A DNA stretch of 62,037 nucleotides, counting the filler, from Streblomastix strix (Eukaryota): assembly GCA_008636045.1 (NCBI GenBank). It is 3 parts of 3 records of this genome, joined end to end, with 100 filler letters (N's around TTAATTAATTAA, not from the genome) between each part and the next. Parts side by side here need not be neighbours in the genome. Positions count along the whole stretch, not along the records: positions 1 to 20,624 come from SNRW01000422.1; 2 more parts are not named here. The stretch is one strand, 5' to 3'. The translations under genes were made by a program, and so were the position numbers. Below the pieces are notes generated by a model. The model did no database searches. It saw only the letters and a list, made by a program, of their open reading frames with translations, and had not been told where the DNA came from. Within the stretch, counting starts at the first letter, position 1. Each line of letters begins with the position of its first letter. Of the stretch, positions 10,358 through 61,069 are shown in pieces.

Positions 10358-11056
10358 TCATATTCTACGCCTGTGAATGAAGTGGTTCAGTATTTCTGCT
10401 TTGGCTTTATTTGCTTATTATTTGACATCACTATAATATCCTTATACTTTTCTATAATTACTCATTTAAGCTTCAATTTCTTCATTTGCTCCTTCTTCTT
10501 CTATTTATTCTTCTGTCCTTCGTGCAAGTAATGGAAGTGGTTGGAAAGATGGTTACCAATTTCTCCTTTCATGAAGTGCTCTGAGGAAATTGAAGATGTG
10601 AAACAATTCATTCAAGATCTCCTCATCCTTTTCCTCGTTAATGCCTCCAGCTGTGCTGAATGAAATGCAAATCACTTTTCCATATCCAACATTTACAAGA
10701 TCAGCAAAGTCTTATGCATCTCCATATTCTTGAATCCAGCTAAGATATTATCTACTATTATATCTGACATTTAATCTCAATCGATCAACTTTTTAGTTTG
10801 AATGATTACCGAGTTTGAATATGGTCAGCTAATTGATTGATCGAAGAATATTCTGATTCTTAATCATTTATTTAAAGTCATTATTATTTTTGACTTTATC
10901 TCTTAGGAATTTAATAGAAGAATTAACTTTAGTAAGAGAATCTGCTGATTCTGATTCTTGTAATTCATTTTATTTTCTTTCCTTTTTATATGCGTATGAA
11001 TCAGTAAACGAAATTATGGCTCTAGCTGCATTATAGATTTCTTATTCTGTTTCCAT
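10358..11056 (-). CDS. Expanded-family helical (ARM-like) hypothetical protein, 232 aa
   Basis: Intact single-exon ORF with TAR=Gln (METEQEIYNAARAIISFTDS…STAGG…EQIEEEGANEEIEAQ…). Paralogue of 59518-60237. Confidence 0.75.
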
Positions 11057-12012
11057 TTTATCCTGATTTTTTTATATTAATAAAATAGAAAATGGAATAA
11101 TTAATATGAAAATTATAAGAGAAAGAATAAAAATATGGTTATTAGGCGCATAAAATATGTGGGAATGGCGAAACTAAGCGTTCTTTAAGAAAAAATCTCA
11201 TTTATTGCTATATATCATCATATTTATGACGTAATTTGTAAAAATTAAGTGCCACGCCTATTGAAGTTGTATAAAAACATTTTAAAATTATATTTTGATT
11301 TATGTAACATTTGTAAGAAATGATATTAAGCGAAGAATTTTGAGTTAGCAATTAAGAAGCAATTATAATTTGAATTAAGTAGATTTGTTGAAAAATAATT
11401 ATAAAGTTTAATTGCAATATTCAACATGTATCTATTTAGAGGATTGTTATGTTGTTCATCCACATTTTGCAAAATTATATTTTAACATCAATTAACAACT
11501 TATAAATAATTTTGATTGTGCCATTAGATAAAATTATTAAATGATGATTGAAAAAGACCTTATTGTAGCAAAATTATAATTAATTTGATGGTAAAATTGA
11601 ATTCCAAACCTGGAGTTTGAAACGCTTCTAACTCTTTTTTTTGTATCTATTAAAGTTAAATTTTTTATTTTTACTTAAATTATTCCATACATTAATATTA
11701 TTTTAAAATAATTAATTGTTTTCCTTAATATAATAATTTTTTTAAAAATTATTTAATTGAAAAACAGCCCATCAGCTAGGTTATTCAGTATGCTAATTAT
11801 TTAAATATATAATAAGTAAATAAATAAATTTCTTTTTTAAACAAAATTTTTTACTTAATTAATGCACATTTATAATTAATATTAATTAATGAATTTCTCG
11901 ATACTTATATAAAATTAATCTAATTAAGTATAAAAATATAGATACTATACAAAAAATTAGCGAGAAATTTGAGAAAAATTTAATTGATATAAGTAGTATA
12001 GTAAGAAGAAGT

Positions 12013-12116
12013 TTGTCGTAACTTCAAAATCATATTAATTTATATCAATTTGCCAGCGATTATTGAATCGGTATGACAAATTGATTTTATTTAATATGAT
12101 TTTAAACCTACGGCAA
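12013..12116. repeat. Long imperfect inverted repeat (hairpin)
   Basis: Arms 12013-12055 and 12074-12116 pair at 35/43 positions, with an inner stem CGATT-attg-AATCG (12057-12070). Confidence 0.85.
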
Positions 12117-12912
12117 CCAATCTTCTCCAAACCTATAGAATAAACATATTGTAAAGCATTTATCCCTCAAACGCATTGTATAAACGAATTGGAAAGCATT
12201 AATCATAAAAATTAACACAGCGATAAACGTTGTGTTGGGTTAATCATGTGTATTGTCATATATATGAACGGTAACGATTATTCAAGCGCCTGTTCCTAAT
12301 TTATAATTAAAAATATAAACAGTTAACCAATAAAGTTAGTCTTTATAGTAAATTGTATGGAGCAGCGTGTAGGACTGTTTGTTCGGTTTTATTTTTGGTT
12401 AATATTTTATAAAAATGTGTATGAGTAATAAAATAGTATTATTGAATAAAAATTTATAAGGAAAAAAATACAATCCTTGAATTTTTGAAAAGCTTTGCAA
12501 TTAATTTGATTACATAATTATTATAATAGTCTGTAGATGTATAGTACATATATATATATTTATTATTATATATAGCATCTATGTTTATAATGAAACAACA
12601 AATTAATTTATAAAAATTTTATTCATATAAAACCATTGCCATAACCGCAACTAGCCAACATGCTAAGAATGGAATATCATCTGACTTAAAAAATGTATGA
12701 ATCAAAATGTATATTATGATTATATAAAATTATTGCAATCGGTTTAATGATTGTTGTGTGACACTTCGGGGACGGATATATTCACCAGCCTGTATTAAGA
12801 TTGTTGAAGTACCAATTTATTATACTCATAAGGTTGCAAACAATATAGAAACATTAAAAGATAAATATAAGAGAACTTTTAAATTAGTTTGATATTTTTT
12901 CTAGATAAATAA

Positions 12913-13230
12913 ATGGATACAGAAAACTTAAAACTTACTTAAAAGGTTTATAGACCAAAGAAATATTTTACAGAATAGGAAGCATAAGAAATGGCTAAGA
13001 AGTAACGTGGTGAAGCTAAGAAAAGATAGCGTTTAAAGTAAAAATAATTTAAAGAATAACTCTCAATTTAGCAATCAATAATAATAGACACATTAAATAA
13101 AAAAATATTATCAGATGATATTTTAGAGTAAATTTCTAAATTAATTGAAGATCCAAACCTTTAATTGATCATTTCTTTTTTCATCTAAGTTTATTTTAAA
13201 GTTATTCTTAAGCTTTAATTGATGATATGA
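12913..13230 (+). CDS. Small basic hypothetical protein of the virus-like element
   Basis: MDTENLKLTQKVYRPKKYFTEQEAQEMAKKQR…, 105 aa with TAR=Gln, no intron. Confidence 0.5.
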
Positions 13231-14192
13231 TTCGTTTAGTTGCAACTTTATGTGTTTTAGGTCTGTCCATGTTTAATCGATCTTCCTTAGATAACAGTAC
13301 TTTACGTTATCTTGCGTTTAATGCTCCCTAATCAGTAACGTTATAATCAACTACTTTATGTGACTCGTTAGGATATTTTCCATACGATTGATGAACTGGT
13401 TTTTATCCCCAATCTAATCCTCCAATATATTATAGATCTTTGTTTGTTTCTTTACTATCTTAAATTAGTTATTTTTACTATTAATTTTATGCCTTCTATT
13501 ATTCAATATGTTATTTAAGAGAATCAGCTTATTATGCAAAATCAGTGAATTATTCTGTATCTGTTTCAAATGGATTAAACAAGCCATTTTAAAGCTTTTC
13601 TTACCATCGATTGTAACCTCCAAATTTTTCCATTCTACCCATCTTCACTATCATATATTCTTGGATCAGGTGCAGATGGTTATATCTTTTAACTAACATC
13701 ATGTGATGGTTAATTAAAACGATCATTAATATTTTAATTAGTATCAGCATCCGCTTATTACGTAAGTTGTTATTATTATGGAACTAGATATTGGTTTATC
13801 ATCTATTAAGCTTCTACATTACTTTCTATTAGATCATTAGGATCATATCCTCCATAGTGTCGCTTTTATCTAACTCCCCCTTTATATCCTTATATTCCTG
13901 CATCAGCTTCTTATCTCGAAATACTTGGATCAACTTCAATAATTTAATCAACAATCATTTCATATTAATTTCTAAGTAATTTTTTATTAACATTTTCTAT
14001 CTATCCAATATTATATAGAATTTAAGGTACTTTACATACTTATCTTGAATCAATGATCTATTATTTATGTTTATACTTTTATTTTAATTACATATATTCA
14101 TATATGTCTGATGTTTGTGGTAAAGTACTTGGTCTTCCTGCTTTCTTTGGCTTTGAACCTGCTGATTTAGCTCATTTAACTTCTCTTTACAT
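13181..14192 (-). pseudogene. Hypothetical protein of the virus-like element, disrupted
   Basis: MQREVK*AKSAGSKPKKAGRPSTLPQ…IIEVDPSISRQEADAG…; early in-frame TGA plus a probable frameshift near 13570-13640. Confidence 0.5.
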
Positions 14193-14229
14193 TTTAATTG
14201 TTGATAATTAGTATTATAGTAATAAACAA

Positions 14230-14352
14230 ATGGAAACTAAATAATACCTTAGGCAGCAACAAAGTTGCTAGCACAATAAATGTAATCAGATATGTTGTGA
14301 CATTCTAATTATCATTTCAAGCATTTTGTTAATAATTACTTTATTGAAATGA
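14230..14352 (+). CDS. 40-aa Cys-rich single-TM micro-protein
   Basis: METKQYLRQQQSCQHNKCNQICCDILIIISSILLIITLLK* with a hydrophobic C-terminal helix. Confidence 0.45.
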
Positions 14353-14376
14353 TATTATTTTTTCTAGTTTAAAAGT

Positions 14377-14601
14377 ATGGCAAAAATAAATTGTAAAGAA
14401 TTTATGACTTACTCAACGTTTTTGAGTTAACTTATATCACGAGCGACAAAGAATGATCCTGAGATAGAATTGAGATTTATATTATGATAATATAATAAAC
14501 GTCTTAAGATGGAACAGTTAAAAGAAATTATATAAATGGCTTCAGAGAGCAGCTAATCAGCAGTAATGAAATTGATATAGTATTTAAATGAAAAATCTTG
14601 A
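14377..14601 (+). pseudogene. Small helical hypothetical protein with internal TGA
   Basis: MAKINCKEFMTYSTFLSQLISRATKNDPEIELRFIL*QYNKRLKMEQLKEII…; TGA at 14485-14487. Confidence 0.45.
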
Positions 14602-14673
14602 AGATGTTCGATCTGCCAAACCATAAGTTGAAGGCTTTGCCTGAAGCAATGCTTAGAGTTTATTTTTATTGAA

Positions 14674-16143
14674 ATGACTAGCATTGATTTACAAATTATC
14701 AACTCAGATTCAGATAAAGATTATGTTACATGGTAAGCGACTATCCCTAGCGGATGTTAACGCTTTTAAGTTAATAGTATCAATAACATTCCAATTAATT
14801 TAATATACTATTTGAACAATGATTACATAGAAATTTTACATAATATAATATCTACTGATTCAAGAAAAATCTTTTTCTAACAATTGATTGGAGAGGACTA
14901 GTTTCATTGTTAATTGCTAGATAGATTACCTCCAATACGTATTAGCTTGAATACAGCTATTAATAATGCTTATAGTAGTGATCAAACAATATAAGCTTAT
15001 AAATATACTCCATAATTACTATTCTTAACACTAACATAATATGATAATTTTACCAATACAATTGAGAAATATTTTAGGACCTAATCAACTTTGAATAGTG
15101 GAGCAATATGCTTTAATAATGCAATTAACGAGCATGTCTAAAAATTATAGAATAATATGTTTTCATTAAACTAGAATTATGGATAAGATTTAGTGAATTC
15201 AGCTATCAATTACATTAACCTTAGAATTGATGCATTTCTTTATCACTACTGGATCTTAGATTCCACAGTTAGTGAGTTATATCGAATGATTGGATTAATA
15301 CGATTATATTGCCCAACATCAAATAACTACATAACATCAATCGAACCTAAATATTTTACATAAGGTAACGGGTTATCAATAAAATACCTATTCGGTAAGT
15401 AAGTTGATATAAATGCTAATGTAACATTTACTACATCTGATTCTTAACCAATTAATGTATAACAATTAATAATGTAATAAATCATTAATAATATTAACAC
15501 ATTTCCAGTAAGAATTATCAATTCATTACCAGCATTTAGTATTGTTGAATGGTAAGATATTTATACAGCTGTTGGAAGAACTAATTATTATGGATAATTA
15601 ATCCCATAAGTTGTGACTGAATACTGTTAGTAAAATAACGATTATTGGTTTGCTAATCGTATACTTTTATCTCCAAATCTATACGTACAATTAGTTGGTG
15701 GATAAGATCTATATGATGGATTGAATGAAAATAGCGCTAATTAATTTGTTAATTTAGCATCAGCTATTAAACAAATTGATCTCGAAGTATGGTTCTATTA
15801 AACTAAACATGATAGTTAAAGTTTAGAAGTAGATCTTCCAATATTCTGTCCATATATCGGGAATTATCTAGAATATCCATAAATGCTGATAATTTGTGTA
15901 TCTAACTAATTATAAGGAATAACTCTTTAATCAATCGGAGGTAATGGATTCTCAAACGTATGCTTTAAATAGAATTTGGTTGATGTGCCAGTATTACGGG
16001 GATAGAATATGATGAGTCAGTAATGTCTAGTGGGATAGAACAAATCTTTAGTGTTTACATTATATGATAACTTTGGAAGGAAGATACCGATGTAATATAT
16101 GGATATGTATAATAATTTACTTCTAGAGATACAATTTTAATGA
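14674..16143 (+). CDS. Putative minor capsid protein (penton, single jelly-roll), 489 aa
   Basis: Uninterrupted 490-codon ORF under TAR=Gln, beta-rich termini. The C-terminus LVFTLYDNFGRKIPMQY…LLLEIQFQ resembles the hxhxLxDxxGxxh…hxLxF ending of Polinton/virophage pentons. Lies directly upstream of pPolB. Confidence 0.6.
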
Positions 16144-16177
16144 GCTGTATAAATAAATTATTTTTATTTTAATCAAA

Positions 16178-19100
16178 ATGTCTTATCTAAAGAAAGCAGA
16201 GCTAATTAAACTACTCAAAATTAATAATAAAAACATAAATGAATCATTAAAATTAAATTAGCTTAAAGATTAACTCAATGAATATTTAGACAAAATTAAT
16301 TATAAGAGACGAGGAAGAAATAACTACAATAATTTGAAAACACATTTAAAATAGATTCATTAATACAATCAATAAATCCTCAAAAGTAAAGATTTGGTTA
16401 AGCATTTCAAATTGAATCAATATGATTAATATTTATAAGAATATCGTACGGATTAATTGTAATTATAAGCGGATATCTATTATGATGATTTATAAGAATA
16501 GAATCGATAATTGCATTAAGATTTAACTAATTATCACTCAAATTAATATGAATAATATTTATAAGAATATCGTAGAGAATAAGAAAAACAATAAGCTGAT
16601 GATTATTGGACTGATTTAATCAACAGAGAACAAGAATAAGCTTAAAGAATTATGGATGAACAGTATGATGCGAATCTTCAATATTAAATAACTATCAAAC
16701 AAAATAAAGAGAATAATGATAGGATTAATTAGTTTAGTGTAAAAAATGATAGAGAAATAGATAATGATGCAGGTACTCCATTATATTTTCTTCCTGAGAA
16801 TATGGAGTAATTTATTGCTACAGTTTATGATGCAAGATAAGGATTTGCTCGTGAACGTACAATAGAAAAAACAGAGCTCAATGGATAACTTAGTGAATTA
16901 CACTATAATAATGTTATCTAATCTTTATCAGATATTGAATATTTTGTTGATTAAGTTTATGAAGAATTGCACCATAAAGCATTCAAGATTCAATTCAATT
17001 TTGGAGTAATCTACGAAGAATTAAAGTACGATTAATATGAGTTCGTTTATGTTGATTATGGATATATATTACCTAGAGATACTCGTATACAAGAACATGC
17101 TAATAAACTTATACAATCTGAAGATGATATTATTGAGTATTATTAATATATTAAATCTGAGATAATAAACATGTAGAATTATACGTTAGATAATACAAGA
17201 TAACGATACATAGCTATCTATTCGATGATGATTAAAACGTTTAATCTTTAACGTCAAATTGTTGGAGCTAGTATGAAAGAATTAATCTATTTTCATTTTA
17301 ATTGTCGCAAAAATGTTATATACAAAAATACTGGAAATAATAACAATTGTTATATGGAAGCAGTAGCAAAAGCATTGCATCCTGATATGAAAGAGAAAAG
17401 TTATAAAAGTGAATCAATTATAAGCATTAGTAGAGAATATTTAGTTTAAGTATTAGAGTTACCATTCGATTCAAAGAGTAGAAAAATGACTGATTTATTT
17501 AAGACATTTGAAGGATTAGATATAACTAAATATGCTAATATAGTATCATAAAAGTTAAAAATTAACTAAGACATTTACTATTACGATAATGAACATAAGA
17601 ATTATTATAGAGGATTGTAGAAAATGTATTAATGTGAGGATTAAAATGATATCATATAGACTATCGATATATTAGTTGTTGAATCAGAATGGGAAGGGAA
17701 TAAGATATCTCATGCTTTCGCAATAGCTAATAAATAAGCATTAACTGGATTGAAATTTTGCCCACATTGTTACTCAAAAGCATTCGATTCTAAAGATAAA
17801 AACTACTCAAGAGACTATGAGAAACACATTATAAAATATGAGAATAACGAAGGAAAAATAGTTAAGAAAGTTAAACTAGATTATATCTAAAAGCCATTTG
17901 TTCCACATATTATGTAGAATAAAACTTATCAATATCTATTTGCGAATGGAAGATAACCTGAATTTAAACCTATACAATACTTCATCACATACGATCTTGA
18001 AACAGTACCTAAAATCGTTAATAAAAATTCAATAAATCAAGCTATTAAATGTATGAACTATTTCCTTTATCAGTTGCATCAACTATTCGTAACAAGGGGG
18101 GACTTAAAAGGATCTTCTTTAGCTAATAGGATGAAGATGATTTTATAGTATAATGGTTAAATTAATTGTTTAAAGAAGCGGAGTAAGTTAATGCTGACAA
18201 CTAATATTTAACAGAAGCATGTACAATTGATGAAACAATTCCTTATTCAATGGAAGTACCAATTGTTGGGTTTAATAGCTCAAGATTTGATATATCATTA
18301 ATTATATAATAGATGTAATGTAAAGATTGGATAATTAGTAATTATATAGGTAACGCTTCAACAGCTAAGCAAGTAATTATGCATCATAAGATATTGAATT
18401 TGAAAATGAAATTTGTTGATATGTTAACGTATCTTTAACCTATGGAATTAAAGAAAGCAGCTAAGGATTTTGGTGATGGATATGATGATAAGAAAGGCTT
18501 ATTTACCTATGAAGCTTTCAACACTGATAACGTTAATGAAGTACTAAGTAAATCAGAACCATTTACGATGGAAGATTTCAATTCATCATTAAAGAAGACA
18601 AAAATTAGTTAAAAGGATTATTAGATTTATCTAGAAGATGCAAAACGATTTAAAAATAGATGGGATTACTTACAGTTCTATAACGAATAAGACACTTAAA
18701 TAATGATCAAACCGTTAATGACATTAATTAGCTTACAATTTAAATATAAGATTGATATGTTTAGTTTCATGAGTATGGCTGCATGCTCTAATGCTATCAA
18801 GTATACTAAAGCTTATGAGGATTTTGATATTCTGGGAACATATCCTAATTTTGAAGACTAATCATAGAAATTCTACTAAACAGAGTACTATTGGTAGAGT
18901 AAAGTGCGGGGATATCAATTGTAAGATAAACATTAAAAAAGAGACACAACAAATAATGTATAAGATAGTGATTTCGATTATTTCAAACAATTATTCAAGG
19001 ATTCTAATTGCAGCATTTGCGGATGTAAATTCACTTTTGCTAATAATCCAACACTTGACTGAATCGATTATTTAAAAGTTCATTCAAAAGATAATGTTTA

Positions 19101-20510
19101 ACCCTGTTGATTATACTTCAATTGCTTCTGTTCTAACAAAGACAAAAATATAGGTAAATTGTTTATATAATTACGTAAATATTGAATGATAAGATGTTTA
19201 CCAACTAACCTTACAGATATTGATGTATATCACTTAATCAAGTCAGGAATAACAGGTGGATTATCAAATGTTATGCATCGAGTTAATAGAGCAGGAATTG
19301 ATTTCATAAAAAGATTATGGTATGATAATGATAATAAGAAAGTTACTGTTCTAACAACTGATCATCGAATTACTCATGTAGTTGGTGTTGATTTCAATTC
19401 ATTATACCCTAGTGTTATGTCATCAGAACCACATTAATTTATTAAATATACTAATGAAAAAATATATATGTGTGGATCATAAACAGGAAAGATTGAGGGT
19501 GATGATTAGCATTCAAAATAAACTATACTTCGAATAATTAATAGCAAAAAAAAATTTACAGCTGATGGCTAATTATTCGGTGCAGAAGTTAAAGGTCATA
19601 TTGATGAGAATTATTTGAACGATTTCATTAACTTCCCACCTATTCTAAGGAATTATGAATTCACAACTGATGAAAGAACTATTGGTAGTTATATGTATAA
19701 TCATATGAAAGATAATAAGATTAAGACAGATCAAAAATAAAGAAAGCTAACTAATCTATCATCAACGATGGGAGAATATATAGCATTTAGCTCATACTAT
19801 TTATGGTTCTTAATTGATGATTGTCATTTTATTATAGATGATGTGAAATAGATAATTCTGTTCAATAAACATGATTAATTCAATTCATTTATTAAGGAAT
19901 TTACTATAAACAGAATTGAAGCAAAATTAGATGAGAATAAGGGATAAGAATAATTCTTTAAGATAGTTATGAATGGTTCTTATGGGAGTGATGGTATGAA
20001 CACTGAGAAATATCATAAAGTAAAAATAATGAGTGAGAAGTAGACTGAAAGAGCAATTAGATCTAATGCGTTCATGGATGAGCAAAAAATATCAGAAGAC
20101 AGTTATATTGTATAAATGAACCCAGTGCATTGCAGTTGTAAAACTCCTTTATAAGTTACCTTCTTTGAATTAGATAATGCTAAATATTGGTATCTAAATT
20201 TCATATATAACTTCATATACAAATGCTTCGATAAGAATAATATACATTTTATCGAAGGAGATACTGATTCAGCTTATAATGCGATTAGTGGAAATCTTAA
20301 TGAAGATTTTACTTAGTAATTTAATGCTGTTATAAGTTATCGAGATTTTTTATAACGAGAATGCTAAGTATTTCTTCCCCACGATTAAAACAGACGTTAA
20401 TGATGAGTAGAAAATCCTTGGATTAGCAATCGAAAGACAGGGAACCGCAATGTATGCTCTTGCTCCTAAAAATTACATGATAGAAACTAACTACTGTGCT
20501 AATTCAAAGA
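16178..20510 (+). pseudogene. polB: Protein-primed family B DNA polymerase (pPolB), disrupted and 3'-truncated
   Basis: ExoI YDLET (~17990), ExoII GFNSSRFD (~18270), ExoIII YNEQD (~18680), motif A DFNSLYPS (~19390), motif B KIVMNGSYG (~19960), motif C EGDTDS (~20255). Frameshifts near 18025 and 20350; in-frame TGA at 19060, 19108 and 19183. Confidence 0.92.
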
Positions 20511-20624
20511 AGGTAACTTATAAAGGAGTTTTACAACTGCAATGCACTGGGTTCATTTATACAATATAACTGTCTTCTGATATTTTTTGCTCATCCATGA
20601 ACGCATTAGATCTAATTGCTCTTT
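20499..20624 (-). repeat. Exact inverted copy of 20048-20173 at contig end (probable amplification chimera)
   Basis: 126 nt reverse complement of an internal pPolB segment. Confidence 0.9.
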
Positions 20625-20724
20625 NNNNNNNNNNNNNNNNNNNNNNNNNNNNNNNNNNNNNNNNNNNNTTAATTAATTAANNNNNNNNNNNNNNNNNNNN
20701 NNNNNNNNNNNNNNNNNNNNNNNN
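20625..20724. other. Artificial contig linker (N44-TTAATTAATTAA-N44)
   Basis: 100-nt spacer with a stop-codon cassette, identical to the one at 41338-41437. Confidence 0.97.
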
Positions 20725-21653: not shown

Positions 21654-23883
21654 TCAAAATCGCCCATTATACCACCTTGGTTTTGGGTTGCTCTTATCTA
21701 CGTAGTAATACAATATCCTTCTTTTGACAAAGTCGGCTGAATCCTTGATATTATATCTTTATCCTTTATTAATCAGTTGTGCCTCAACTTCTTCATATCC
21801 ACCTTCTTCCTCTATTTGCTCTTTTGAACTTCGAGCAAATGAAGGAAGAGGTGGGAAAGGAGGTTAATCTGGGATTTTTGGATTTAATCTCCCTTAATAA
21901 AGCTCTTTGAGGAATCTGGATAAGTAAGACAATCCATTATCGATCTCTTCATCTTATTCTTCACCTTGACCACCTGCAGTACTTATTGCAATGACATTTG
22001 CTCTAACATATCCTTTACTCACAAGTTCAGCTTAATCTTATTCATCACCTGTATCCTGAATCAAAATAAGACATAATCTACTTTTGATTCTAACTGACAA
22101 TGATTGTAGATCATATTCCTAATTGAAGCGAGAGTTGATATTGTAGAAAGTGAGTAAGATAAGCGAATGGAGAGCGTCTGGGGTACTAATAACATCTTTA
22201 CTTATATTATAATTTCTGATTAGATCTTAAAAGAAATCAAGAGATAAAGTAATATCTAATATAGAGGAGGTTGATTCTAATTATTATTAATTATATTATT
22301 ATTATTATTAACTAATTTATTTATTTAATTGGGATTTGGATGCAAATAAAACAAGAGGACGAGTAAGATGGAGAATGAAGTTATGTTCAATCATTAGCAA
22401 TGATTTGAATTCCTTATTAAATCTTGATATTTCAGCAAGAGATAAGAATAAAGCAGTTTTAAAATCTAATAAAGCAGGAGATTGTGGAATATTGATACAC
22501 TATTAACAATTGATATCAGTAGGACAATTGAGATGAATAAGTGGACATATTCTTTCTTTCACAATCTTCATAATCTGATCTGGAATGCTTGTCTTGTAAT
22601 AATGGCTATTCAGATTTTTCTCTCCAATTAAAGGAATAGCTTTAATTAATTGTGCTGATTATTTTAATTCACTTTCAGTTTCTTCATTCTCTTATTCATT
22701 CTTGTTTCCTTTATTATTTTCTTACTTTAATTTATCGATTGCAATTAGTAAATTATTTAAATTCTTATCTATAACTTTAATATAAATATTCTTCATTTAT
22801 TAATCAGTATCTCTTTCTTTCATTATTTGAATTCTAATTCTTATTAATTGTTCAGCTTCATCTGAATATTTCTTTTGTTCCTTTTCTTCTTCAATCTTAT
22901 TCTTAATTACCAATTCAATCTAAGTATTGAGTTCAGATTATTGGAAATCATCGAAGAATCGATTAGGAAAAAATTATTCAAATAAATTTTGCATTTATAC
23001 TCCACGTTCTGCAACAAATTCAATTATATCTAAAAATATCTTCTCTATTCCACTTCTACAATCATTAATATAACTCCGAATTAATTTGAATGAATTAATA
23101 TTAAATATTCTTCTTAATTCATTTTGATCTTTTTTTTCAGTTCATTAAATATTTCTTTAAATTTTATTTCTTTCTCTTCATCATTTATTGTTTATGATTC
23201 AATAATGGAATGAATATCTTTCATTATTTAATGCAATTAATCAAATTAATATTTTGGAGCTGTTGAATATTTAATGAAAATAAAAAAATATTTAAAAAAA
23301 ATTATGAATTGAATATAAATTGGTAATTTATTTAAAATTTAAATATTTTAAAAATAAATATATTATATTAATTACCTTCTTGTACAATCTCTTGTTTTTC
23401 AGATTTGGAACCTGTTTATTATTTTGGATTAATCTATGTTTATATTTAATTCTCGGGTTGCTGTTTTATTTGATCATTTGAGTGAAGTGAAATGATTTTT
23501 GATTTGTGATTATCATTTGTTAAGATAGATTTAGTTTATGAAATTTGTTTATTAGATTATTTTGAATTTTAAGATGATTAAGTAACTATAGGTTGTTTCA
23601 GTTTATTGCCATTTAATGTCTTCACTGATTTCTTCGCTTATAGAACTTTCTATTTTGTTTGTTTCAGTAAATTCATCTGAATCTAAGATATTTTACTCTC
23701 CTTTTAAACTAATATTCATTTTGGTACTTTTCCAATATGTCCATTCTTCTCAATTGTGAACAATTCTTTATCCTTCTTTATCAATCGAACAACATCACCT
23801 TTTATAACAGCAATATAATTTGCATCTCCTTCAATTCCAGCAAAGTCAGCAATTACTTCAAAGTATTGACTTGAAATTGACAT
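21654..23883 (-). CDS. SH3 domain + Gln-rich linker + ARM-like family domain protein (probably disrupted)
   Basis: The N-terminus MSISSQYFEVIADFAGIEGDANYIAVIKGDVVRLIKKDKELFTIEKNGHIGKVPK is SH3-like and is followed by an in-frame TGA. Intron from ~23375. The C-terminus STAGGQGEEQDEEI…EQIEEEGGYEEVEAQ…RWYNGRF* matches the 10358/59518 family. Confidence 0.65.
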
Positions 23884-24754: not shown

Positions 24755-26503
24755 TCAAAATACGTGAGGTATTTATTTTGTGCAGTATATCATACTTTAA
24801 AGAAATAATTGCCTTTTAAAACTTTATTTAGTTTCCACCAAGCTCAATTCAAAATTTCTTTCTGTTTTCATCTTCTTTTACATTTATTTACTCTTATCTT
24901 TTAAAATTGTCTTAATTTCTCTATTTATTATTATTTATCAAAATCATTAATATTTCATCATATTATATATAGATATTTCTAGATCTTTAGCTATGGTTTT
25001 CACATCATCAAAAATCTCTTATGACTTTACATAAATATGTGAAACAATTTCTTCTATTCCTCCTTCTTCTTCTAAATCTTCATTTATCAATAGTTCTATT
25101 TATTTATGCAAATGATATTGAAATTAATTTTTTCGTAGATATTCAAATGCTGAGCTTATTTGAACAAGTCCATATTTAATTACTTTCAAGTTCTCCTCAT
25201 GACTACCACCCACAGTTCCTATAGATTGAACCTTTACATGAATATATCTCCAATTATTTAATGACTTTATTTATATACTCATATCACTGTATGAATAAAT
25301 TGAATATAGAAATTCATTGCTCCAACACCGAATTTCAGCATCGTCTCTTTTCCTTTAATTATTGCATTGATTCTCTCTCTCATATTAAGTGAGTGATATT
25401 ATTGAATTAATGAGGATTGAATTCTGAGCTAAAATATGATATTTGGGAAGATTTTTATAGGTAAGTTATCTAAGTAGATGAATTGTTTCAGCAATAAAAA
25501 TTTTAGACGATTCTTTTCGGGAATTTGATGGCAAAGTTAAATTCGGATTTGATTATAAAACATGTATATTACTAATAAGATTTTCAGTACATGAAATAAT
25601 AATCATAATAACATGCTATAATACAGATTTATCCTATAAAAGAGTTTATCTAATATCAATTTAATGTTTTGAGAATTCAGCAAGTACTCCACATGCAACA
25701 TCCCTAAGTTAATGAGTATATTCTGTGTTTGGAAGAACAAGACTTTTATTGCAGTTGAGTTTTGGAGAACAATTGATGTGAAGAAAAGCCTATACAGATT
25801 CATGTATCTTGTTTTCTTTAAATTATTAATTATTAGAGTCCTTTTCCAGGATTCCTAAAAGTCCTTTCAGAGAATGTATCATATTTATCATTTCTTTAAC
25901 AAAATCAATTTGATTTATTTTATTATCTTCCTTATTTTTTTTAAATGTTATATTAAGTTAGAATATCTAAGAATTTATTACTTTTGAGCAAATTTTAGCT
26001 ATATTATCATCAAAAAATTAATCTTTATGAATAAAGAAGACTGCTTAAATAAGTTGAATGAAGAATTCAGAATAAATTTATTATTCTACATCATTTTTCT
26101 CGACAATAAATTATTGTAATATTATTTCTTTCAACTTTTATGTTAATCCAGATTGTCTGAACAATATATAATAATAATTTTAACCATAATGATCAGTCAA
26201 TTTCATTCCAAGTTCAGCAATTTTATTGGTGATGAGAAGGAGAATTTTCTAAATTTGAGTTTTTCCATAATTAATTTGCCTATTCAATTCTTCCAACAAT
26301 TATTCATTGATTTGTGGATTGATGTTGTTCTAATCAAGATTAGTGACATGAAATTGTAGTTGTTATGCATTTTCAAGTTTTTTATCCTGGTTCTTCTCAT
26401 TTGAAATTGATTTCAGAATAGTCAAAAAATCAATTTGTTCATATTCTGGAGTTTATATATCAATTTAAGTAGATATATTTAGATTTCCTACTGAAGATTT
26501 CAT
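24755..26503 (-). CDS. Helical (ARM-like) hypothetical protein
   Basis: Long ORF under TAR=Gln from MKSSVGNLNIS…; contains VGGSHEENLKVI…LEEEGGIEEIVSHI, related to the expanded family module. Confidence 0.55.
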
Positions 26504-26998
26504 ATTATAATAATATGAGAACTAAAAAAATATAAAAAATATAAAAAATTAAGAAATTGTGTTTGATTTAACAAAATTACAAAAAGAATTTGTAAAATTT
26601 CCTATTTTAACTTGCAAAATGTTAAATAAAATAATTAATTATGAATGTAAATATTATATTTACAGTAAATATTTAAAAAATATAAATTTTTATCACATAA
26701 TTGAAGATATTTTACGAGATATTTTGTTATATTAAACTATTTGTCTCCTTATTTTATAATTGTGAGTATTTCATTCAATACATTGAAATTTTTAATTATA
26801 AAAGCAGTATTTATACTAGAAGTTGCATATATGGCAGAATATTTATCAAAAATAATTTTTATACACTCAGAAAATTGATTCTATTAAGAAAATAATAATA
26901 CAATAGAGTGAATTGTAGGTGAATAATAAATATATTTCAGAAAATGAATTAAATAAACCATTTGAAATATAAACGATGAATTGAATACATATGAAACA

Positions 26999-41337: not shown

Positions 41338-41437
41338 NNNNNNNNNNNNNNNNNNNNNNNNNNNNNNNNNNNNNNNNNNNNTTAATTAATTAANNNNNNN
41401 NNNNNNNNNNNNNNNNNNNNNNNNNNNNNNNNNNNNN
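41338..41437. other. Artificial contig linker (N44-TTAATTAATTAA-N44)
   Basis: Same spacer as 20625-20724. Confidence 0.97.
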
Positions 41438-44732: not shown

Positions 44733-46009
44733 AATTAATTGTTAAAAGTGAAAATGAATGAATTTAACTAATATTTGTTTATTGATTAATTGAATTACCA
44801 TTTTAAACTAATATTTCTTTATTGGTTAATTGAATTACCATTTTAAACTTTCCATTCTTTTATTTTCATCTCATTTTCACATCAAATATCTCACTGAATC
44901 TTATTCTACTTTAAACAATTATTTATTAATACAGCAACATCTTATTAATAAATTTAATCACTTTTTCTTTTTTATAAAACTATTCTTTCTGCATCGTATT
45001 AACACAATCCCATACTCGTCCGCATGCTGCTTTTAATGTCCCAATAACCTGAATATTCTTCAGTCCAAGTTTTTATCCTACTCCAGATAATACTCCATTT
45101 TCACTTTAATCTGATTAATTTAAATTCATTAAATAAATTTATTTTATCTAAATATTAAAACAATACTTATTTTTTATTCATATTTTAAATAAGGAACAAA
45201 AATAATAATTCAAAATAATTTAGATAACTTTATTATCATATCAATATTTACCATTATTTCAAATATTATGTCTAATTCATTTTGCATTACTTCAGTAACT
45301 ATACTGTTAGTTTAAATTTTATATTGATTCATTTTTTATATAGGAACAAAAATAATCAATTAATATTATTCAAAATTTAATATCTTTATAATATTTTTCA
45401 TACTACGTAGATTCCTCTTAACATTCGTTTTGAGTATAAACATATTTAATTACATATTCTTTTTCAAATATCTATTTGGGTTACATTTATCGTTTAAGTT
45501 TTTAGTAATATGCCCTATTTATCTAACAGCATCTTAATGTTAATGCTTAATAAATGAATTTTGAGTTCTCAACCTGATTAGTTCCTCTAAATCAAGTTGA
45601 GGATTAGTATAAATAATTTATGGAGTTTTTGATGTTTTTACGATTCTTTTTCTGACTTATTTCTTTAATAGTTTTTCTCTAACTTCGCTTAATGATGTTT
45701 CATCGGTTTCATTTTAATCCTCTTATGGTTCATAAGATTTAAAATCTTCATCATCAGTTTATTTTTAAAGATATTTTTATGCATATTTTTTCTTAGGTTC
45801 AAGCCCTCCTCCACGAGATTCTAATAATAATTTATTCTACTACGTTTAAGTTTATTTTTTAAGTATCTGTTTTCTCTCTTCAAACACCTTAATTTCTTTA
45901 TTAACTTAGATAACATATCCATTATCAAAGTAATCATTTTTTGAATCATTTTCTATCAAATTCTTTAGTGCTTATTGTAAGTCCATTTGAACAATTTAAA
46001 ATAAAGAAA

Positions 46010-46720
46010 ATGATAAAGGATATAGAAAGAAGTCAAATTAAAATATCAAAAACTATAAAATAATTATTTATGATAAAACTTAGAGATCTAACCGATGATG
46101 ATAAAATAAGATTGCAATTGATCGATGATGCAATTAATCGCATTATAACAATGCCAAAGATAGATCTAGAACGAAGTGAAACAGTCGATGGAACGATTAA
46201 GCCTAAAGAAAATTTAACATAAACTGATAATGAAATTATTCCTGCAATACTTGAATAATTGATCATTAAATAATAATAAATAACTAAGTTTAAGAGTTAA
46301 TATAATAAAGATTAATATTATTAAATTGATCAAACAACTGCTTAAGTTAACCTTGAGGAAGTAGTTTAAAATATTTATCTTTTTCATTCAAATCTTGAAG
46401 TGATGAAATTCATTATTGATCGATTATGGACTACAGTCACTATAAGAAAAAGAGGTAAAGATTTTATATTTTCATCAGAAAATTTTATAAAACTATAGGC
46501 ATAAAACACTTTTGAAAATGAAGATGATTTAGAAATTGCATTAAAGAAACCAGTAATGAGATCCCATTCATGCCTAGATAAATTATATAAAAAGAAAGAT
46601 TTTATAAGAGTATTGGATGTATTAATTAAAAATGTTTGTATACCAGTTAGTGGTAATGTTCTTTTTAATTCTGTTGAATAAACAATATCGAATAATTAAA
46701 GACTTTGTTCGTTTGTCTGA
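46010..46720 (+). CDS. Hypothetical protein in virus-like cluster (degenerate continuation to ~47230)
   Basis: 237-codon ORF under TAR=Gln (MIKDIERSQIK…). Confidence 0.45.
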
Positions 46721-47305
46721 TGCGCCTATATCAGAAATAACAAAAGATGATTTTGAAATTATTATTTTACCTGTCCAATTTTTACATTTAATTATTTTTA
46801 TCGACAACAAAAATGCTTGCACAATCTGAAATAGTCAAAGTTAAATTACTTGTTCATCTTCAAAATATACCAAAAGAAATATACATGGAACCTATTTATT
46901 AATGTGGAGATGATTTATATTAATGAACAGTAAATAAATACAATAAACCATACTATAGACTACTAAAACCATATGGAAGTAATCCTAGTTATCCATAACA
47001 TGTTTATATAATGATTGAAAAAAGAAATAATTAGCTTTTTGATGATACAATTAAATAGTATACATAACAGATGAAGTATCATAGAGATTACAATATCTCA
47101 TTATCCTTTTAGAAACTTAAGTGAAGATGATGCAATCAAATTTAGGGAACTAAGAGAATCAGTTAAATAAATGTAATCTTAAACAAAATTTAATTAATAT
47201 AATTAATTTATATTTAAACGTCTTGATAATTGTAAATAATACTTTGTTAATGAAACCTGATGTTTAAGCTTCGTTAAATGATCATTGATTATTTTTGTAA
47301 TAAAA

Positions 47306-48064
47306 ATGGATCAAAACTTAAGTGATTTAGATATGATTGAAGAAGATGAATAGATTAATTAGTAAAAATAAGTAATTTAATTAATAAAATAATAAGCAGA
47401 AAAATAAAAAAAAATTAAAGAAAGAAATTTATTAATGCAAGTTATTGATAATGAGATAATAAAGCATTTGAATTATTTGAGTTAATTCTTTAGGAGTTCT
47501 ATCGATTTTGTTTATCTACATTCTGTTTAGATTATTCGTGGAGTAAAGACATTTTTATAACCTATAACAGCTGGTAAAATTATTAAATAAGGTGGAACAA
47601 GTAATTAAATTCTATTATCAAATGGTGATACTATTGATAAAAATTATTTAGATTATAAACCTATTGAAAATGCGCGTAATTCATCAATTGCTTATGGAAT
47701 GTATGAATCACGAATATGGTATACATTAACAACATAAAATAGTAGGGTATATATTTCTCAGTAAGTTACTTATTTTGATCCTTATACAGTATGGGATTCA
47801 GGATATACAATATTCTCTATCGTTGATAATGCTATAAAACTAAAATTCAGTGGAACACCAACTAACATATCATTAAATGCTGTTCTCTTTGCATAAAAAG
47901 TTATTGATTATTCAATATTTTGGAATGGAGCAATTCCAATAGTTTGCTTTATTAATCCTAATGGTAATGTTAAAATTAATACAATGTTTTAGCTAAGTTT
48001 AACTGATGATTTTTGTGTTTAAGTATGTGATTCATATGCCATTCATAATTAATCAGCCAATTGA
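47306..48064 (+). CDS. Putative viral fibre/receptor-binding protein, 252 aa
   Basis: Coiled-coil N-terminus, fibre-like motif QIIRGVKTFLQPITAGKIIKQGGTSNQILLSNGD and a beta-rich C-terminal head (…CFINPNGNVKI…VCDSY). Confidence 0.55.
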
Positions 48065-49418
48065 ATAATTTGAAAATAAACAAATGGAAGGATTCAATGA
48101 AATAATCATTTATGCTCTAGATTAATTGAACATAAACTGGCACGAAATCTTTAAAGCTATTTGGGAAGCAGCTATCAAATACGCTTGCGAATCAATGATA
48201 TGGAGTTGGCTTTTTCAATTGAGGAAAAATGGTAAATTTCACGAACTAGAAGAATTGGCAAAATAAATACAATAAATATAATTTGTACATAAAAATTATC
48301 ATGCTTAAAAGTTTGACGATGTCTTCCCTATGAACTTTTATGATTTTTAAAATTTATCAGTAAAATTTTATTCTATATAAATGTTTTAAAATCATTAGGA
48401 TTTGCTTTAATTGTTTCAAAATAATATTTAAATATTTGTTAATTATATATTTGTTAATTTTTTCATTTAAATACTTTCAATAATATGCAGTTTTATTAAT
48501 TCATTAATAGAGCAAGTAACAGTTAACAAATATTCAAAAGCAGTTTGATAATATCCAAAAATTAAACAATCACCTATAAATTTGATAATATTTAAATAAA
48601 AAATAAAAGTTATAGCTTTAATTTCCATCATCAATATTTTTTAGATAATAACGATTTTCTGCCTTAACTTTTGATTGTTTATCTATCATAAATAGTATTT
48701 TATACCAATATATGCAATTTAAACATAATTATCTACAAAACGAGTAAAATAATAACACATATACAAAGTATGATATGATATATCAACTAAATTCAAAATA
48801 TTAAAATTCCGAATAATTGGCTAATTAATTTTTGATCTATTTAAATTGTTTAAATTATTTTCTATTATTTAATCAAAATTATGTGAATTATATAACCAAT
48901 AATATTACAATTTAATATTTTTTTAACCATTTTTTTAATTAATGTGAGCTAAAATCTAAGCTGAAGAAGCAGACTTTGAAGAAATCACAGAACATACATT
49001 ATAACGTAGACTTGCAGTTGAATAGAGGTTGGATTAATTATTAATTAATGTTTATTATTTAATTATGATTATAACTGAATATAATACTAAATTTTTATTT
49101 TTAAAGTTATTATACAGCTGATTCAGAAAAGAATTTAGCGATATATACTCTTCGCTCTTTACTTGATGTTATAAACGATAAGCTACACAATTATGAATAG
49201 GGGGACAAAAGAAACTTATTGCTGGAAATTATGTTTATATATGATTGTATTTTAAGTTACGTTTTTTTATTATACGTTTCATTTTATATAATGTGAATGA
49301 TTGATAATAAATTGAATGGCTTTGACAACTCCAGAATGTAATAAAAAACTTAAAAAATGAATTGATATGCCACCCATATTAATATATATTTATAAAAGCT
49401 CATCATTAAAAAGTAAAC

Positions 49419-52023: not shown

Positions 52024-55000
52024 TCAAACACAGTTCTATTTCACAACAGCATATCCTCTTTCTTTATATTCTTATTTTGTGATCAACCAATCCCCGAAAA
52101 CTTTCATAGAAGCCAAAATTGATCCTCCAACCCACACTGAAAATTGGCGATCTGGAGGTGCAATAATGTTGATATCAGCTGTTTTTGGTGCGAGAATCTA
52201 AAGCTCTCTATTCAATCTCTCAGCAAATCCATTGAGCATCGACGTTCCTCCAGAAATGCAGATACTTTTGAAAAGCTCGTTGCGGACTTTGGAGTCACAA
52301 TTCTGAATTGACTGAAACACCAAGTTATGAACACCAGGCATATCAAAACCAATTAAACTAGGTTTGAATATGGCTTCTGGACATCTGAATCTTTCTGATC
52401 CAATTGAAATTTCCTAACCATCAGGCATAGTATATGTCATGTCAACCAGTTTCTATGCTTTTCTTTTCTGTGATTTATAGTCCATAACAATATAGCAAAG
52501 CTTTTCTTTAATATCTTTTGCAATCTCGTAATTTAATTAAACTCCCTTTTCCAACAGTTCTCTTAAAATTGAAACAGTTACATCTCTTCCCGCCATTTCA
52601 TTTCTAAATATTCCATTTGGCTGCTTCAACCCATTATAAATCGGGACAACGCTAATTAGACAATCTCCGCTCTCAAGAACGACTCCGAATGTTCTCCCTG
52701 TTGAATAAAGCGAGAGGACACCACTGTTCTCGTAGTAAAGAGCAGGAATTTGGTATTTCTCAAACATGATCTCAGTCATTTTCTAGCGGTTGATCTCCGG
52801 ATTCAGAACTGGCTCAGATATTAATATGGGAAATTCATAGGAATTAACATGAAGGATGTTGGAAAAGGTATAATTCTAAATAATATAAAAATAATTATAA
52901 TTAAAAGAAATAATTTAATTTACAGATAATAATAATATATGTAAATCATACCCATATTTTCTCCATCTCTTCCCAGTTGTTCACATTTCCGTGCTCAATT
53001 GGATAGTGCAGATTCATATTGTCACAAAGACTAAATGCATCATCTCCAATCTTATAGTCTTTCTCATTCTACTCTATAATTTAAGGAAACACTGATCTTG
53101 GTTTGTCTTCACCCGCCATACCAACTTTCATTATCCCTGATCCGTTATCCAGAACAATAGATTTTATATCCCCATTTTAATCCCGGATGTATCTGTGCTC
53201 AATTCTCATAGAGGTAATACGAACTGACGCTCTGCTGTTCTTCATCTATTGAGTCACTGCCTGTTAAACACCAACAAAGGGATTCTACTGTGTAATTAGT
53301 GAAGCTGTATATTACTGATCTGGAGAAGGTGGCTATGAATCAGGGGAAGGAGGAGGTAATGGAGATAATGATTAGGAATGTTATTATTATTATTATGATT
53401 AGGAATGTTATTATTATTAGGAATATTGTTATTATTATTATGGTTAGGAATATTATTATTATTATTTATGCAATGGAGTTGAAGGAGAAGGAGGAGCAGA
53501 AGGAGGTCCTGATGGAGGACCCAATGATAATTACGAATTTGTTGGAGAAGGAGGATTTGAAGGAGGTCCCAAATCAGGCGTTGTTGATTGACGCAATTTT
53601 TGTTGTTATTTTGGTGAAGGCGAAGGTTTGCGTAAAGAAGCAATTTTTGAAGCTGGTGGAGAAGATGATTATGAAGAATGTTTTTATTAGTAAGGCAACT
53701 GTTTCTAAGGAAATAACATTTTATTATTTCTTGATTTAAGTTCGGCATTAAGTTGATTGATGTCCTCTAAAGTATTTTGAGGTTTGTTAATTTTATATTA
53801 TTGTTATACTATTACTTATTTATTTTTATCTATTGTATCTTTTTATTATTGCTATACAATTACCTATTTATTATTATCAATTGAATCTTTTTATTATTGC
53901 TATACAATTACCTATTTATTTTTATCTTTTGTTTCTATTTATTATTTTTCAATCTTATTCTCAATTTTTTATTCTTTATCTTTTGTCTCTATTTATTATT
54001 TTTCAATCTTATTCTCAATTTTTTATTCTTTGTCATTTGTTTCATGTTATTTAAATTTCTTATTCATTTCCTGATTTGTTTCTTTTTCATCTTTGTATCT
54101 TTCAATTATGGACACAAGTTACATTGTATCACTTTGGAGAAGTTATTATATCGAAGGTCTTTATGATGGATTCTTATTGAAATATGTAATAGTAATTATA
54201 AAAAATAATGACTATAATAACAAAAAATAAATATTAAGATTATTGCATACTAAATTCATCATTGATTCCAACATAAGTTTCAAATCACCATAAATTAATT
54301 CAGGAAAATGTTTCATTTTCCCATTTTAAATGTTTTTAACAGTTTCATTTTAAGTCAAACCTTAGAAAGGATGAAACCCAGTTACAATTTCGACTATTAT
54401 AACACCAACTTACCAAATATTGCTTTCAGAAGTCATTCTATGATTGTATTATAAAACGAATAAATACAAAAGAGATTATTCTAAGGAAATAATAATAATA
54501 AATTATTTGAAACTTTTCCTGCTAATATGCTTCGGGTGGAATGTAAGTCTAGCAAGCTATATTTTAAGATGAACTAAAATCTGCAATATGAATATTCAAA
54601 TGTAAATTCGTAAATTGAATAATTAATATCGTAAAAATAATATAAACCGATTTTAACATTTTCATCTTAATCAAAATATATATTTTCAGGCTTTAAGTCT
54701 TAATAAATGATTCCTTTTGAATGAAGTTCGTTAATGCATTTTAAAATTTAGTATCCATACAAATATCCCTTCTGCACAATTAAAAACATAAAAATTATGT
54801 TAAAATTATGAATGAGTTAAAATAATTGGAGTAACTCTAAAATTTAATATAAACCATTTTCCTATCATTTCCAGTCATTGTTTTCAATTCATTTCCCATC
54901 ATATTACGCAGATTTCCATTGGGACAATACTCAAGTACAAGGCATATATCTTGTTCATGCGGGAATGTTTCAATCAAATTAACTAAATGTTTGGATTTAG

Positions 55001-59517: not shown

Positions 59518-60237
59518 TCAGTTATACCAAAATGGTCTTGTGTTACTCAGATCAATATAGAAGTTAAGTACCATTCCTTTGGCTGTGTTTGCTTCATAAC
59601 TGATATTATTATATTATCCTTTTCCTTTGTTAGTCATTTAAACGTCAAGTTCTTCATTCCCACCTTCCTCCTCAACTTGTTCAACAGATATTCGTGCAAG
59701 TTACGGAAGATTTGGGAAGATTGGTTACCTAAAATCATCATCGTTCCCTTCACTAAGATTTTCGAGGAAATCGGAGATGTGACGCAATCCCTGATAGATC
59801 TCATAATCATCTTCTTCACCAGATCCACCTGCTGTACTGAATGAAATGGACAACACACTTCCATATCCTTCTTTAACAAGCTCATATTGGACTTATTCAT
59901 CACCATGAAATTGAATATGCCACAGACATTCTCTACTCCAAAATCTGATTTAAAATCTCTATCGATCATATTATTCGTTCATTAGGGTACCAAGTTTGAA
60001 TCTGGTAAGTGCAACGAGTGTATGAAACAGATTCGGTATCTAAATCAATGGTTTACTGGATTTATTATTATGTATTTTAATTCTAAGTAATTGAAGAGAA
60101 TAAGAAACATTAGAAATAAAAGCTGTTGATTCTGATTCTGATTAATCATTTGATTTTCTTCCTTTGTTATGCGTGTATGAATCAGCAAAGGAAGTTATGG
60201 CAGTAGTTGCATCTTAGATTTCTTATTCGTATTGCAT
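59518..60237 (-). CDS. Expanded-family helical (ARM-like) hypothetical protein, 239 aa
   Basis: Intact ORF MQYEQEIQDATTAITSFADS…STAGGSGEEDD…EQVEEEGGNEELD…RPFWYN*. Paralogue of 10358-11056. Confidence 0.78.
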
Positions 60238-61069
60238 TTTATCCTGATTTTTTAGCAAAAATAAAATAGAATATAGAAAAATAAATATGAAAAATATAAG
60301 ATAAAGAATAAAAATAGGTTATTATATGCTCAAAATATATGGGAAAGACGGAACAAAACATTCTTTAAAGAAAAAATATCGATTTATGCTGGATAGATAG
60401 CATCATATATATGAAATTATTAGTAGGAATTTAAAAATCCTACAATTAGAAGTGTTATAAAAACTTGTTAAAATTATATTTGGTTGTTTGTAGCACTTGC
60501 TAGAAGTGATATTATGAGAAATATTTTGAACGAGTACTTAAGAAACAATTATAATTAAAAATATGTAAATTTTCTGAATTAAAGTAAGAGAGTTTAAATG
60601 TAATGGTTAATATATATCTATTTAGAGTATTGTTTTGTTGTTCAATCAAATTTTGTATTATTTTAAATTAGAAACGCACAACAACTTTTAAAAAATATTT
60701 CATGTATAATTAAATAAAATTGTAGAATAATGATTGAAAAAACTTCAATAATAGCAAGTTTATATCTAGTATTTTGGAAAAATTGAATTCCAAACTTAGA
60801 ATTTATGAAGTTTTTAGCTCTTGTCTTAGATATAAATCAGAGTTGAATTTTTATTTTTACATCAGTAATTCCAAATATTTCAATTTTTAACTTTAATTTA
60901 ATATTTATCTGTGAATCTTCATTTAAAAAAAATTTTTTTTTCTAATTCTTTTAATTACATATCGAATAATAATTCTATTACAATTTTTTATATTTATTTC
61001 GATAAATAACAAACAAGATTAACTGGAGTAGAAACATTACCAAGAAGTATTTATCGATCTGTAAAGTAT

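Follow-up and report, generated by a model that had tools for sequence, protein, structure and literature searches.

The window analysed here is a 62 kb stretch of DNA from the termite-gut protist Streblomastix strix, made up of three ~20.6-kb contigs joined by identical N-padded linkers, and the element under study occupies the final 8.6 kb of contig 1. This element is a cluster of small genes, an open reading frame (ORF) of 489 aa and the remains of a gene for a protein-primed DNA polymerase B (pPolB), written with TAA and TAG as sense codons, and it is considered here as a candidate endogenous DNA virus of the Maverick/Polinton type (Table 1).

Gene cluster and genetic code

The cluster is readable under table 6 and missed by the standard code, as the original prediction had proposed. 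Under table 11, the longest stop-free run in 11992-20498 is 100 codons, and no ORF of at least 100 aa occurs between 6.3 and 31 kb of the window. Under table 6, the longest ATG-initiated frame of the element reaches 777 codons, whereas 200 first-order shuffles averaged 293; ATG ORFs as long as the 489-aa ORF arose in 4/200 shuffles and ORFs of at least 615 in 0/200. Other parts of the window contain normal eukaryotic genes (actin, kinase, GPN-type ATP-binding and Arm repeat) that also read under this table. No tRNA genes were found in the window. Both codons have a sense meaning in the element's genes, nine segments of which (2,457 codons) hold 149 TAA and 36 TAG (185) versus 32 CAA and 7 CAG (39). 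That this meaning is Gln is taken from the literature on S. strix, an oxymonad described as decoding TAA and TAG in this way (PMC13002328). When TAA and TAG were masked in an alignment, the relatives most often had Gln at 7 of 58 such sites (Lys at 11, Glu at 10) and at 1 of 13 CAA/CAG sites, so that the TAA/TAG sites behave like the latter and Gln is not singled out. The claim that the element could not be translated in standard-code cells is supported. A virus lineage 'long adapted' to this host is also plausible, but TAA/TAG use alone is insufficient evidence for it, because in an AT-rich genome that uses code 6, CAA codons drifting to TAA would presumably give an equal pattern; how deeply the S. 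strix polymerase lineages branch (see below) is better evidence for long adaptation than codon use.

The genes are tightly packed, with divergent ATGs at 14192 (-) and 14230 (+) lying 37 nt apart and 34 nt separating the stop of the 489-aa ORF from the ATG of pPolB. The description of the cluster as intron-less stands for pPolB, through its colinearity with full-length relatives. Gene neighbourhood is shared within the family, and the S. strix gene model matched by the 105-aa ORF (P0006) also contains part of the 489-aa family. Across 172 aa the ~336-codon gene shares 63% identity with S. strix model P0012, where the site of the TGA is not a stop, and its frameshift is missing from the other contigs available for comparison, assembled from four runs, termite-gut or coded, that belong to three studies (X1-X4; X1 is possibly the source sample and hence not independent). 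At a guess, its product is possibly a core or cement protein. The 74-codon ORF is 72% identical to the start of P0001 and 58% to P0153, and the 40-codon ORF had no relative among 213 proteins compared. A 62-nt stretch between the 74-codon and 489-aa ORFs (14594-14655) is skipped by contigs in three runs, which marks it as an insertion peculiar to this copy or its subfamily.

Table 1 Features of the element and of the contig join, in window coordinates.
Feature	Position	Strand	Basis
Possible left terminus, AGTAGT start (candidate only)	11992-12003	+	Sequence reading
Imperfect hairpin, ~55-nt arms, just inside the probable left end	12004-12126	.	Self-match, DNA fold
Small basic ORF, 105 aa	12913-13230	+	First 39 residues 90% identical to P0006 start
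Broken gene, ~336 codons, basic N-terminus, Gln-rich	13181-14192	-	TGA at 14174, frameshift near 13640
Candidate ORF, 40 codons, hydrophobic C-terminal half	14230-14352	+	ORF call
Helical ORF, 74 codons	14377-14601	+	Broken by TGA at 14485
Intact 489-aa ORF, likely long penton (minor capsid protein)	14674-16143	+	Homologues, model, weak structural matches
pPolB pseudogene, 1,440 codons	16178-20498	+	PF03175, phrog_1907, colinear relatives
Likely vOTU protease domain of pPolB, then CxxC zinc finger	17336-17722	+	Motifs by eye
HNH-type zinc-finger nuclease insert between Exo and Pol	19014-19135	+	CxxC...LDRI motif
Fold-back	20499-20624	-	126 nt, 100% inverted copy of 20048-20173
Artificial linker, non-biological	20625-20724	.	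N run + TTAATTAATTAA + N run; identical one at 41338-41437

The polymerase gene, its breaks and its relatives

The Pol part of the pseudogene matches PF03175 (E 1.3e-9, above the curated cut-off) and the phrog_1907 DNA polymerase (E 5.8e-9), and Exo I/II/III and Pol A/B/C are all readable, as originally proposed. Along the protein, an extended N-terminal region is followed by likely vOTU Cys/His motifs, Exo I-III, the HNH-type insert and Pol A-C. The probable vOTU domain has its Cys codon at 17348 and its His codon at 17711, read by eye against the TP-vOTU-Exo-Palm layout of Polinton pPolB (bioRxiv 2024.03.18.585575), where TP is the terminal protein. The long N-terminus, the Cys/His pair before Exo I and the homing-nuclease-type insert are features shared with that published layout, though the domains of the window protein are recognised by motif only and the copy is broken. 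The CxxC...LDRI motif of the insert recurs in 4/4 relatives checked, and P0184, a relative from Trichomonas vaginalis, matches the HNH family PF01844 below the cut-off (E 0.027).

A pPolB of more than 1,400 codons as one reading frame was not borne out. Two frameshifts (near 18022 and 20346) and three TGA codons (19060, 19108 and 19183) interrupt the gene, two of these stops falling inside the HNH-type insert, and because of these five breaks no polymerase can be made by this copy; S. strix relatives carry ordinary residues where the window has stops. Read-through of TGA was considered and rejected because, across five TGA sites, relatives carry Arg at three and Cys at two, and real genes here stop at TGA. 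The C-terminus and everything to its right are missing from the contig, because its last 126 nt are an exact inverted copy of 20048-20173. This fold-back is likely an amplification or assembly chimera, and contigs of run X2 continue with different letters past 20508. A 122-nt inverted repeat of 99% identity near the end of contig 3 (61070-61191 and 61888-62009) resembles it and is likely another amplification chimera.

Many dispersed copies of the element exist in the host genome, as compared through protein records and contigs of public runs. From 1,752 candidates with lengths of 675-2000 aa, the Pol region retrieved 113 proteins, of which 23 are S. strix models, the others being one T. vaginalis cluster (350 members, 54% identity) and unnamed or bacterially labelled metagenomic records. 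In another homologue search, S. strix gene models made up 38/39 matches, with a pile-up of contigs in four runs, and the label Streblomastix strix is carried by 14/14 matches of the 489-aa ORF and by the nearest polymerase matches. No relative of P0020 turned up in IMG/VR. Related polymerases also lie at fifteen metagenomic loci that use the standard code, and 28/36 of their long ORFs with a stop (some of them shadow frames) end in TAA or TAG. At one such locus (L013:649-5035) a related pPolB is spread over three consecutive TGA-ended ORFs that are near-identical to the unbroken pPolB of L012. Two further records, P0092 and P0215, are polymerases of this eukaryotic virus family filed under a bacterial name at source and likely contain protist-virus DNA.

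Two quick trees with only Shimodaira-Hasegawa-like approximate likelihood ratio (SH-aLRT) support, one dropping 9/122 candidate rows for short overlap and the other using 50 hand-picked rows, both without a named Polinton, plasmid or adenovirus outgroup, group the window pPolB with P0015, P0016 and P0017 (support 100) and divide the S. strix rows into five to six deep lineages. The one phage polymerase (L016) was dropped, as it aligned over 17 residues only. The free tree requires 3 changes of the S. strix label, while a single grouping was not rejected by the approximately unbiased test (p-AU 0.158; LG+G4, 50 rows). The window protein differs by ~10% from its nearest relatives and has an end branch of 0.06-0.08, compared with 0.03-0.05 for P0015 and P0016.

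These features bear on whether the breaks are real. The copy could be intact in the cell, its stops and frameshifts being amplification or assembly errors in a collapsed repeat, and several points weigh in that direction: the contig ends in a fold-back, comparable stops vanished after polishing in another protist, a warning of artefact that applies to copies of this kind (Bellas et al. 2023, PMC10120064), and the window letter at 19060 accounts for ~65 of 1,165 depth units in X1 and for none in X2-X4. Contigs from the runs mostly depart from that letter and show indels at the frameshift sites. However, eight breaks in three genes, together with the protein difference and the longer end branch, fit real decay, and a collapsed consensus should follow the majority whereas this copy deviates at many sites. 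Errors of this kind are thus quite unlikely as the full explanation; real decay is likelier than artefact, and this copy is most likely a dead relic.

Candidate penton, capsid genes and element ends

The 489-aa ORF is intact and belongs to a family with 14 S. strix relatives among 4,164 candidates and an identity of 44-89% across several subfamilies. A search of 1.84 billion representatives gave 51 matches, including one distant full-length relative, P0169, whose sole locus (L016) was rejected as a phi29-like phage with a 41-residue chance match. In the structural model (predicted local distance difference test, pLDDT, 48.8) the two ends are predicted to form a single jelly roll into which a large region is inserted. 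Its VIA matches were 8rbt_S, 8h2i_bG and the mavirus penton 6g41_A, and Atlas look-alikes of P0169 converge, weakly, on a penton. One large insertion in a jelly roll is likewise the plan of the long Bamfordvirae pentons of mavirus (6G41), PBCV-1 (P1v1) and EhV-201, and the model also matches the insertion domains of these three weakly. No significant Foldseek, Pfam or PHROG match was obtained for the ORF, the Foldseek search with this model being empty in BFVD and PDB and a re-check of Foldseek's own list returning only short beta-propeller blades; a profile of the family gave only chance matches in PDB (E 0.6). An earlier model from 5 sequences (pLDDT 31.5) produced noise in the viral structure search, and the 112-aa penton-like ORF of L012 has no match in the window. 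The penton-like ORF of the original prediction is intact, and its matches, weak but convergent, support its identity as a likely penton with a single jelly roll split by a large insertion.

The absence of three other hallmark genes was confirmed: when all six frames of the window were searched with profiles built from related elements, no major capsid protein (MCP)-like, ATPase-like or integrase-like gene was detected (best E 0.71, 0.015 and 0.058, respectively). Pfam scans revealed no adenain-like maturation protease, for which no dedicated profile search was made. The MCP-like profile consists of three ORFs (L011, L012 and L015) picked out visually by comparison with the S. strix MCP row in the supplement of PMC10120064; these had no PDB sequence match, and profiles of the MCP-like and integrase-like ORFs and of the Pol fragment found nothing useful among PDB sequences. 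In related loci an A32-like ATPase was found (E 0.0017; weak Pox_A32 match beside a related pPolB in L004), and an rve-like family was detected in L011 (E 0.1) and weakly in S. strix model P0068 (E 0.0019). The P0068 match sits behind the pPolB of another S. strix lineage, and P0068 matches the integrase-like profile of the related loci (E 8e-42). The contig stops inside pPolB, which limits what this copy shows of the capsid, ATPase, integrase and ends.

A capsid-less self-synthesizing transposon, which has lost its major capsid protein and moves only within the genome, with the 489-aa ORF a leftover or unrelated, would account for the lack of MCP and ATPase genes in the window, for penton evidence below threshold and for the MCP-like profile matching 0/213 proteins (best E 0.067). 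Yet the contig merely ends within pPolB, the conservation of the 489-aa gene across subfamilies and its full-length outside relative fit selection for function, and Bellas et al. 2023 report 820 MCP hits in the same genome (Table S4, PMC10120064). A capsid-less element is thus unlikely, and a virus with a capsid is preferred.

Only one element end lies on the contig. Polinton ends start with AG/AGT repeats, and the candidate left end combines such a start with a hairpin (self-match of 75% over 126 nt, 43-nt arms 81% complementary) whose DNA fold of -26 kcal/mol (z -6.4) was equalled by 0/200 shuffles. The AGTAGT hexamer occurs 9x on the + strand of the window, making it a weak marker alone, and read depth at 11992 is close to flank level, so that the position is given as a candidate. 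Alternatively, the element could be a free S. strix virus or linear plasmid whose only link to host DNA is a chimeric contig. This would be consistent with the one proven fold-back, with the finding that none of 32 contig pieces examined of ~15,950 bridges 11992, and with a border that shows no GC step (24-28% in the element versus 20-30% in the preceding 5 kb). In contrast, five polymerase breaks are not expected in a free replicating genome, many diverged copies lie on separate S. strix contigs and the gene family of the left flank recurs on the other two contigs, making a free genome very unlikely and integration the favoured state.

Further features were observed elsewhere in the window. 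Contig 3 holds a second packed, intron-poor cluster of table-6 ORFs at 45400-48550 (46010-46717, 47306-48061 and 48084 onward, divergent near 45878), which had no Pfam match; across 39 aa its ORF at 48084 shares 62% identity with S. strix model P0163, a protein that likewise includes part of the 489-aa family, and the cluster is likely a remnant of a related element. The ~475 nt at the start of contig 3 (41444-41918) are repeated at 95-97% identity 11.3 kb downstream (52708-53186), as a recent duplication or an assembly artefact. A repeated host gene family with a common C-terminal motif (10358-11056, 21654-22994, 24944-26692 and 59518-60402) has a conserved upstream 300 nt (11263-11562 versus 60449-60748, 73%) and no Pfam match for the three members scanned. 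On the minus strand, 52946-54595 joins a kinase-domain fragment, an in-frame Gln/Pro-rich stretch and an actin-family N-terminus, a possible kinase-actin fusion.

Origin of the element and the code barrier

Taken together, the locus is very probably a decayed, truncated copy of a many-copy S. strix family in a TAA/TAG-sense code, likely a Maverick/Polinton-type endogenous DNA virus with its penton gene beside pPolB. The proposal of such a virus in a code-6 protist is thereby supported, its homologues being labelled S. strix, but the implied novelty is not: Bellas et al. 2023 (PMC10120064) had already reported that endogenous viral elements of S. strix use the host's table, which they take as a sign of long association. 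There, the S. strix MCPs fall in a Metamonada group with five parabasalids. The window element shares with these elements its host (through homologue labels), the TAA/TAG=Gln table, the many copies and the intron-poor, packed genes. The published group is defined by MCP genes, and for S. strix the passages and table rows compared here describe neither a penton nor a pPolB layout, a gene order or ends; as the window has no MCP, the link is made by host, code and polymerase kinship, and the element likely belongs to this group. A search for Streblomastix with Polinton, Maverick or endogenous virus capsids found only that paper, most subscription papers lying outside the search.

Comparable elements occur in T. 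vaginalis, whose polymerases are 54% identical to the window pPolB over the Pol region, with the same HNH-type insert and motifs, and whose MCPs are ~32% identical to those of S. strix (Table S5, PMC10120064). Copy number, together with PMC10120064, suggests that these polymerases are Maverick genes. However, they use the standard code and are not the sister lineage in the quick trees, and the match to P0184 begins after the terminal-protein region while the window gene extends further upstream. The MCP of T. vaginalis polintons has also been placed outside the maverick-polinton clade, in a 2026 preprint whose passages on the subject mention neither oxymonads nor genetic codes (10.64898/2026.10.13.758929).

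A complete member of the family would rely on an rve integrase to place its linear genome in host DNA. Once excised, the genome would be copied from one end to the other by pPolB, primed by the polymerase's own terminal-protein domain, which the vOTU protease would set free. An A32-type ATPase would package it into a double-jelly-roll hexon capsid with the penton at the vertices, its large insertion pointing outward. Host ribosomes, for which TAA and TAG mean Gln and TGA is the sole stop, would make all of the proteins.

It is also conceivable, if doubtful, that standard-code Maverick-like viruses crossed the code barrier into Streblomastix several times, the five to six polymerase lineages being separate invasions that were recoded later, with at least one still producing code-6 virions that have a long penton, and with ends marked by hairpins. 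As the ORFs of standard-code relatives mostly end in TAA or TAG, such an invader would first suffer read-through. The single locus is a dead, truncated copy and its headline finding was already published, but the S. strix case, so far covered by two published sentences, gains from it a candidate penton, a gene order, a possible end structure and deep polymerase lineages. Eukaryotic viruses whose genes follow a reassigned nuclear code make it possible to test if a change of code protects against viruses like a firewall, and the deep polymerase lineages allow single and repeated crossing of the code barrier to be tested against each other.

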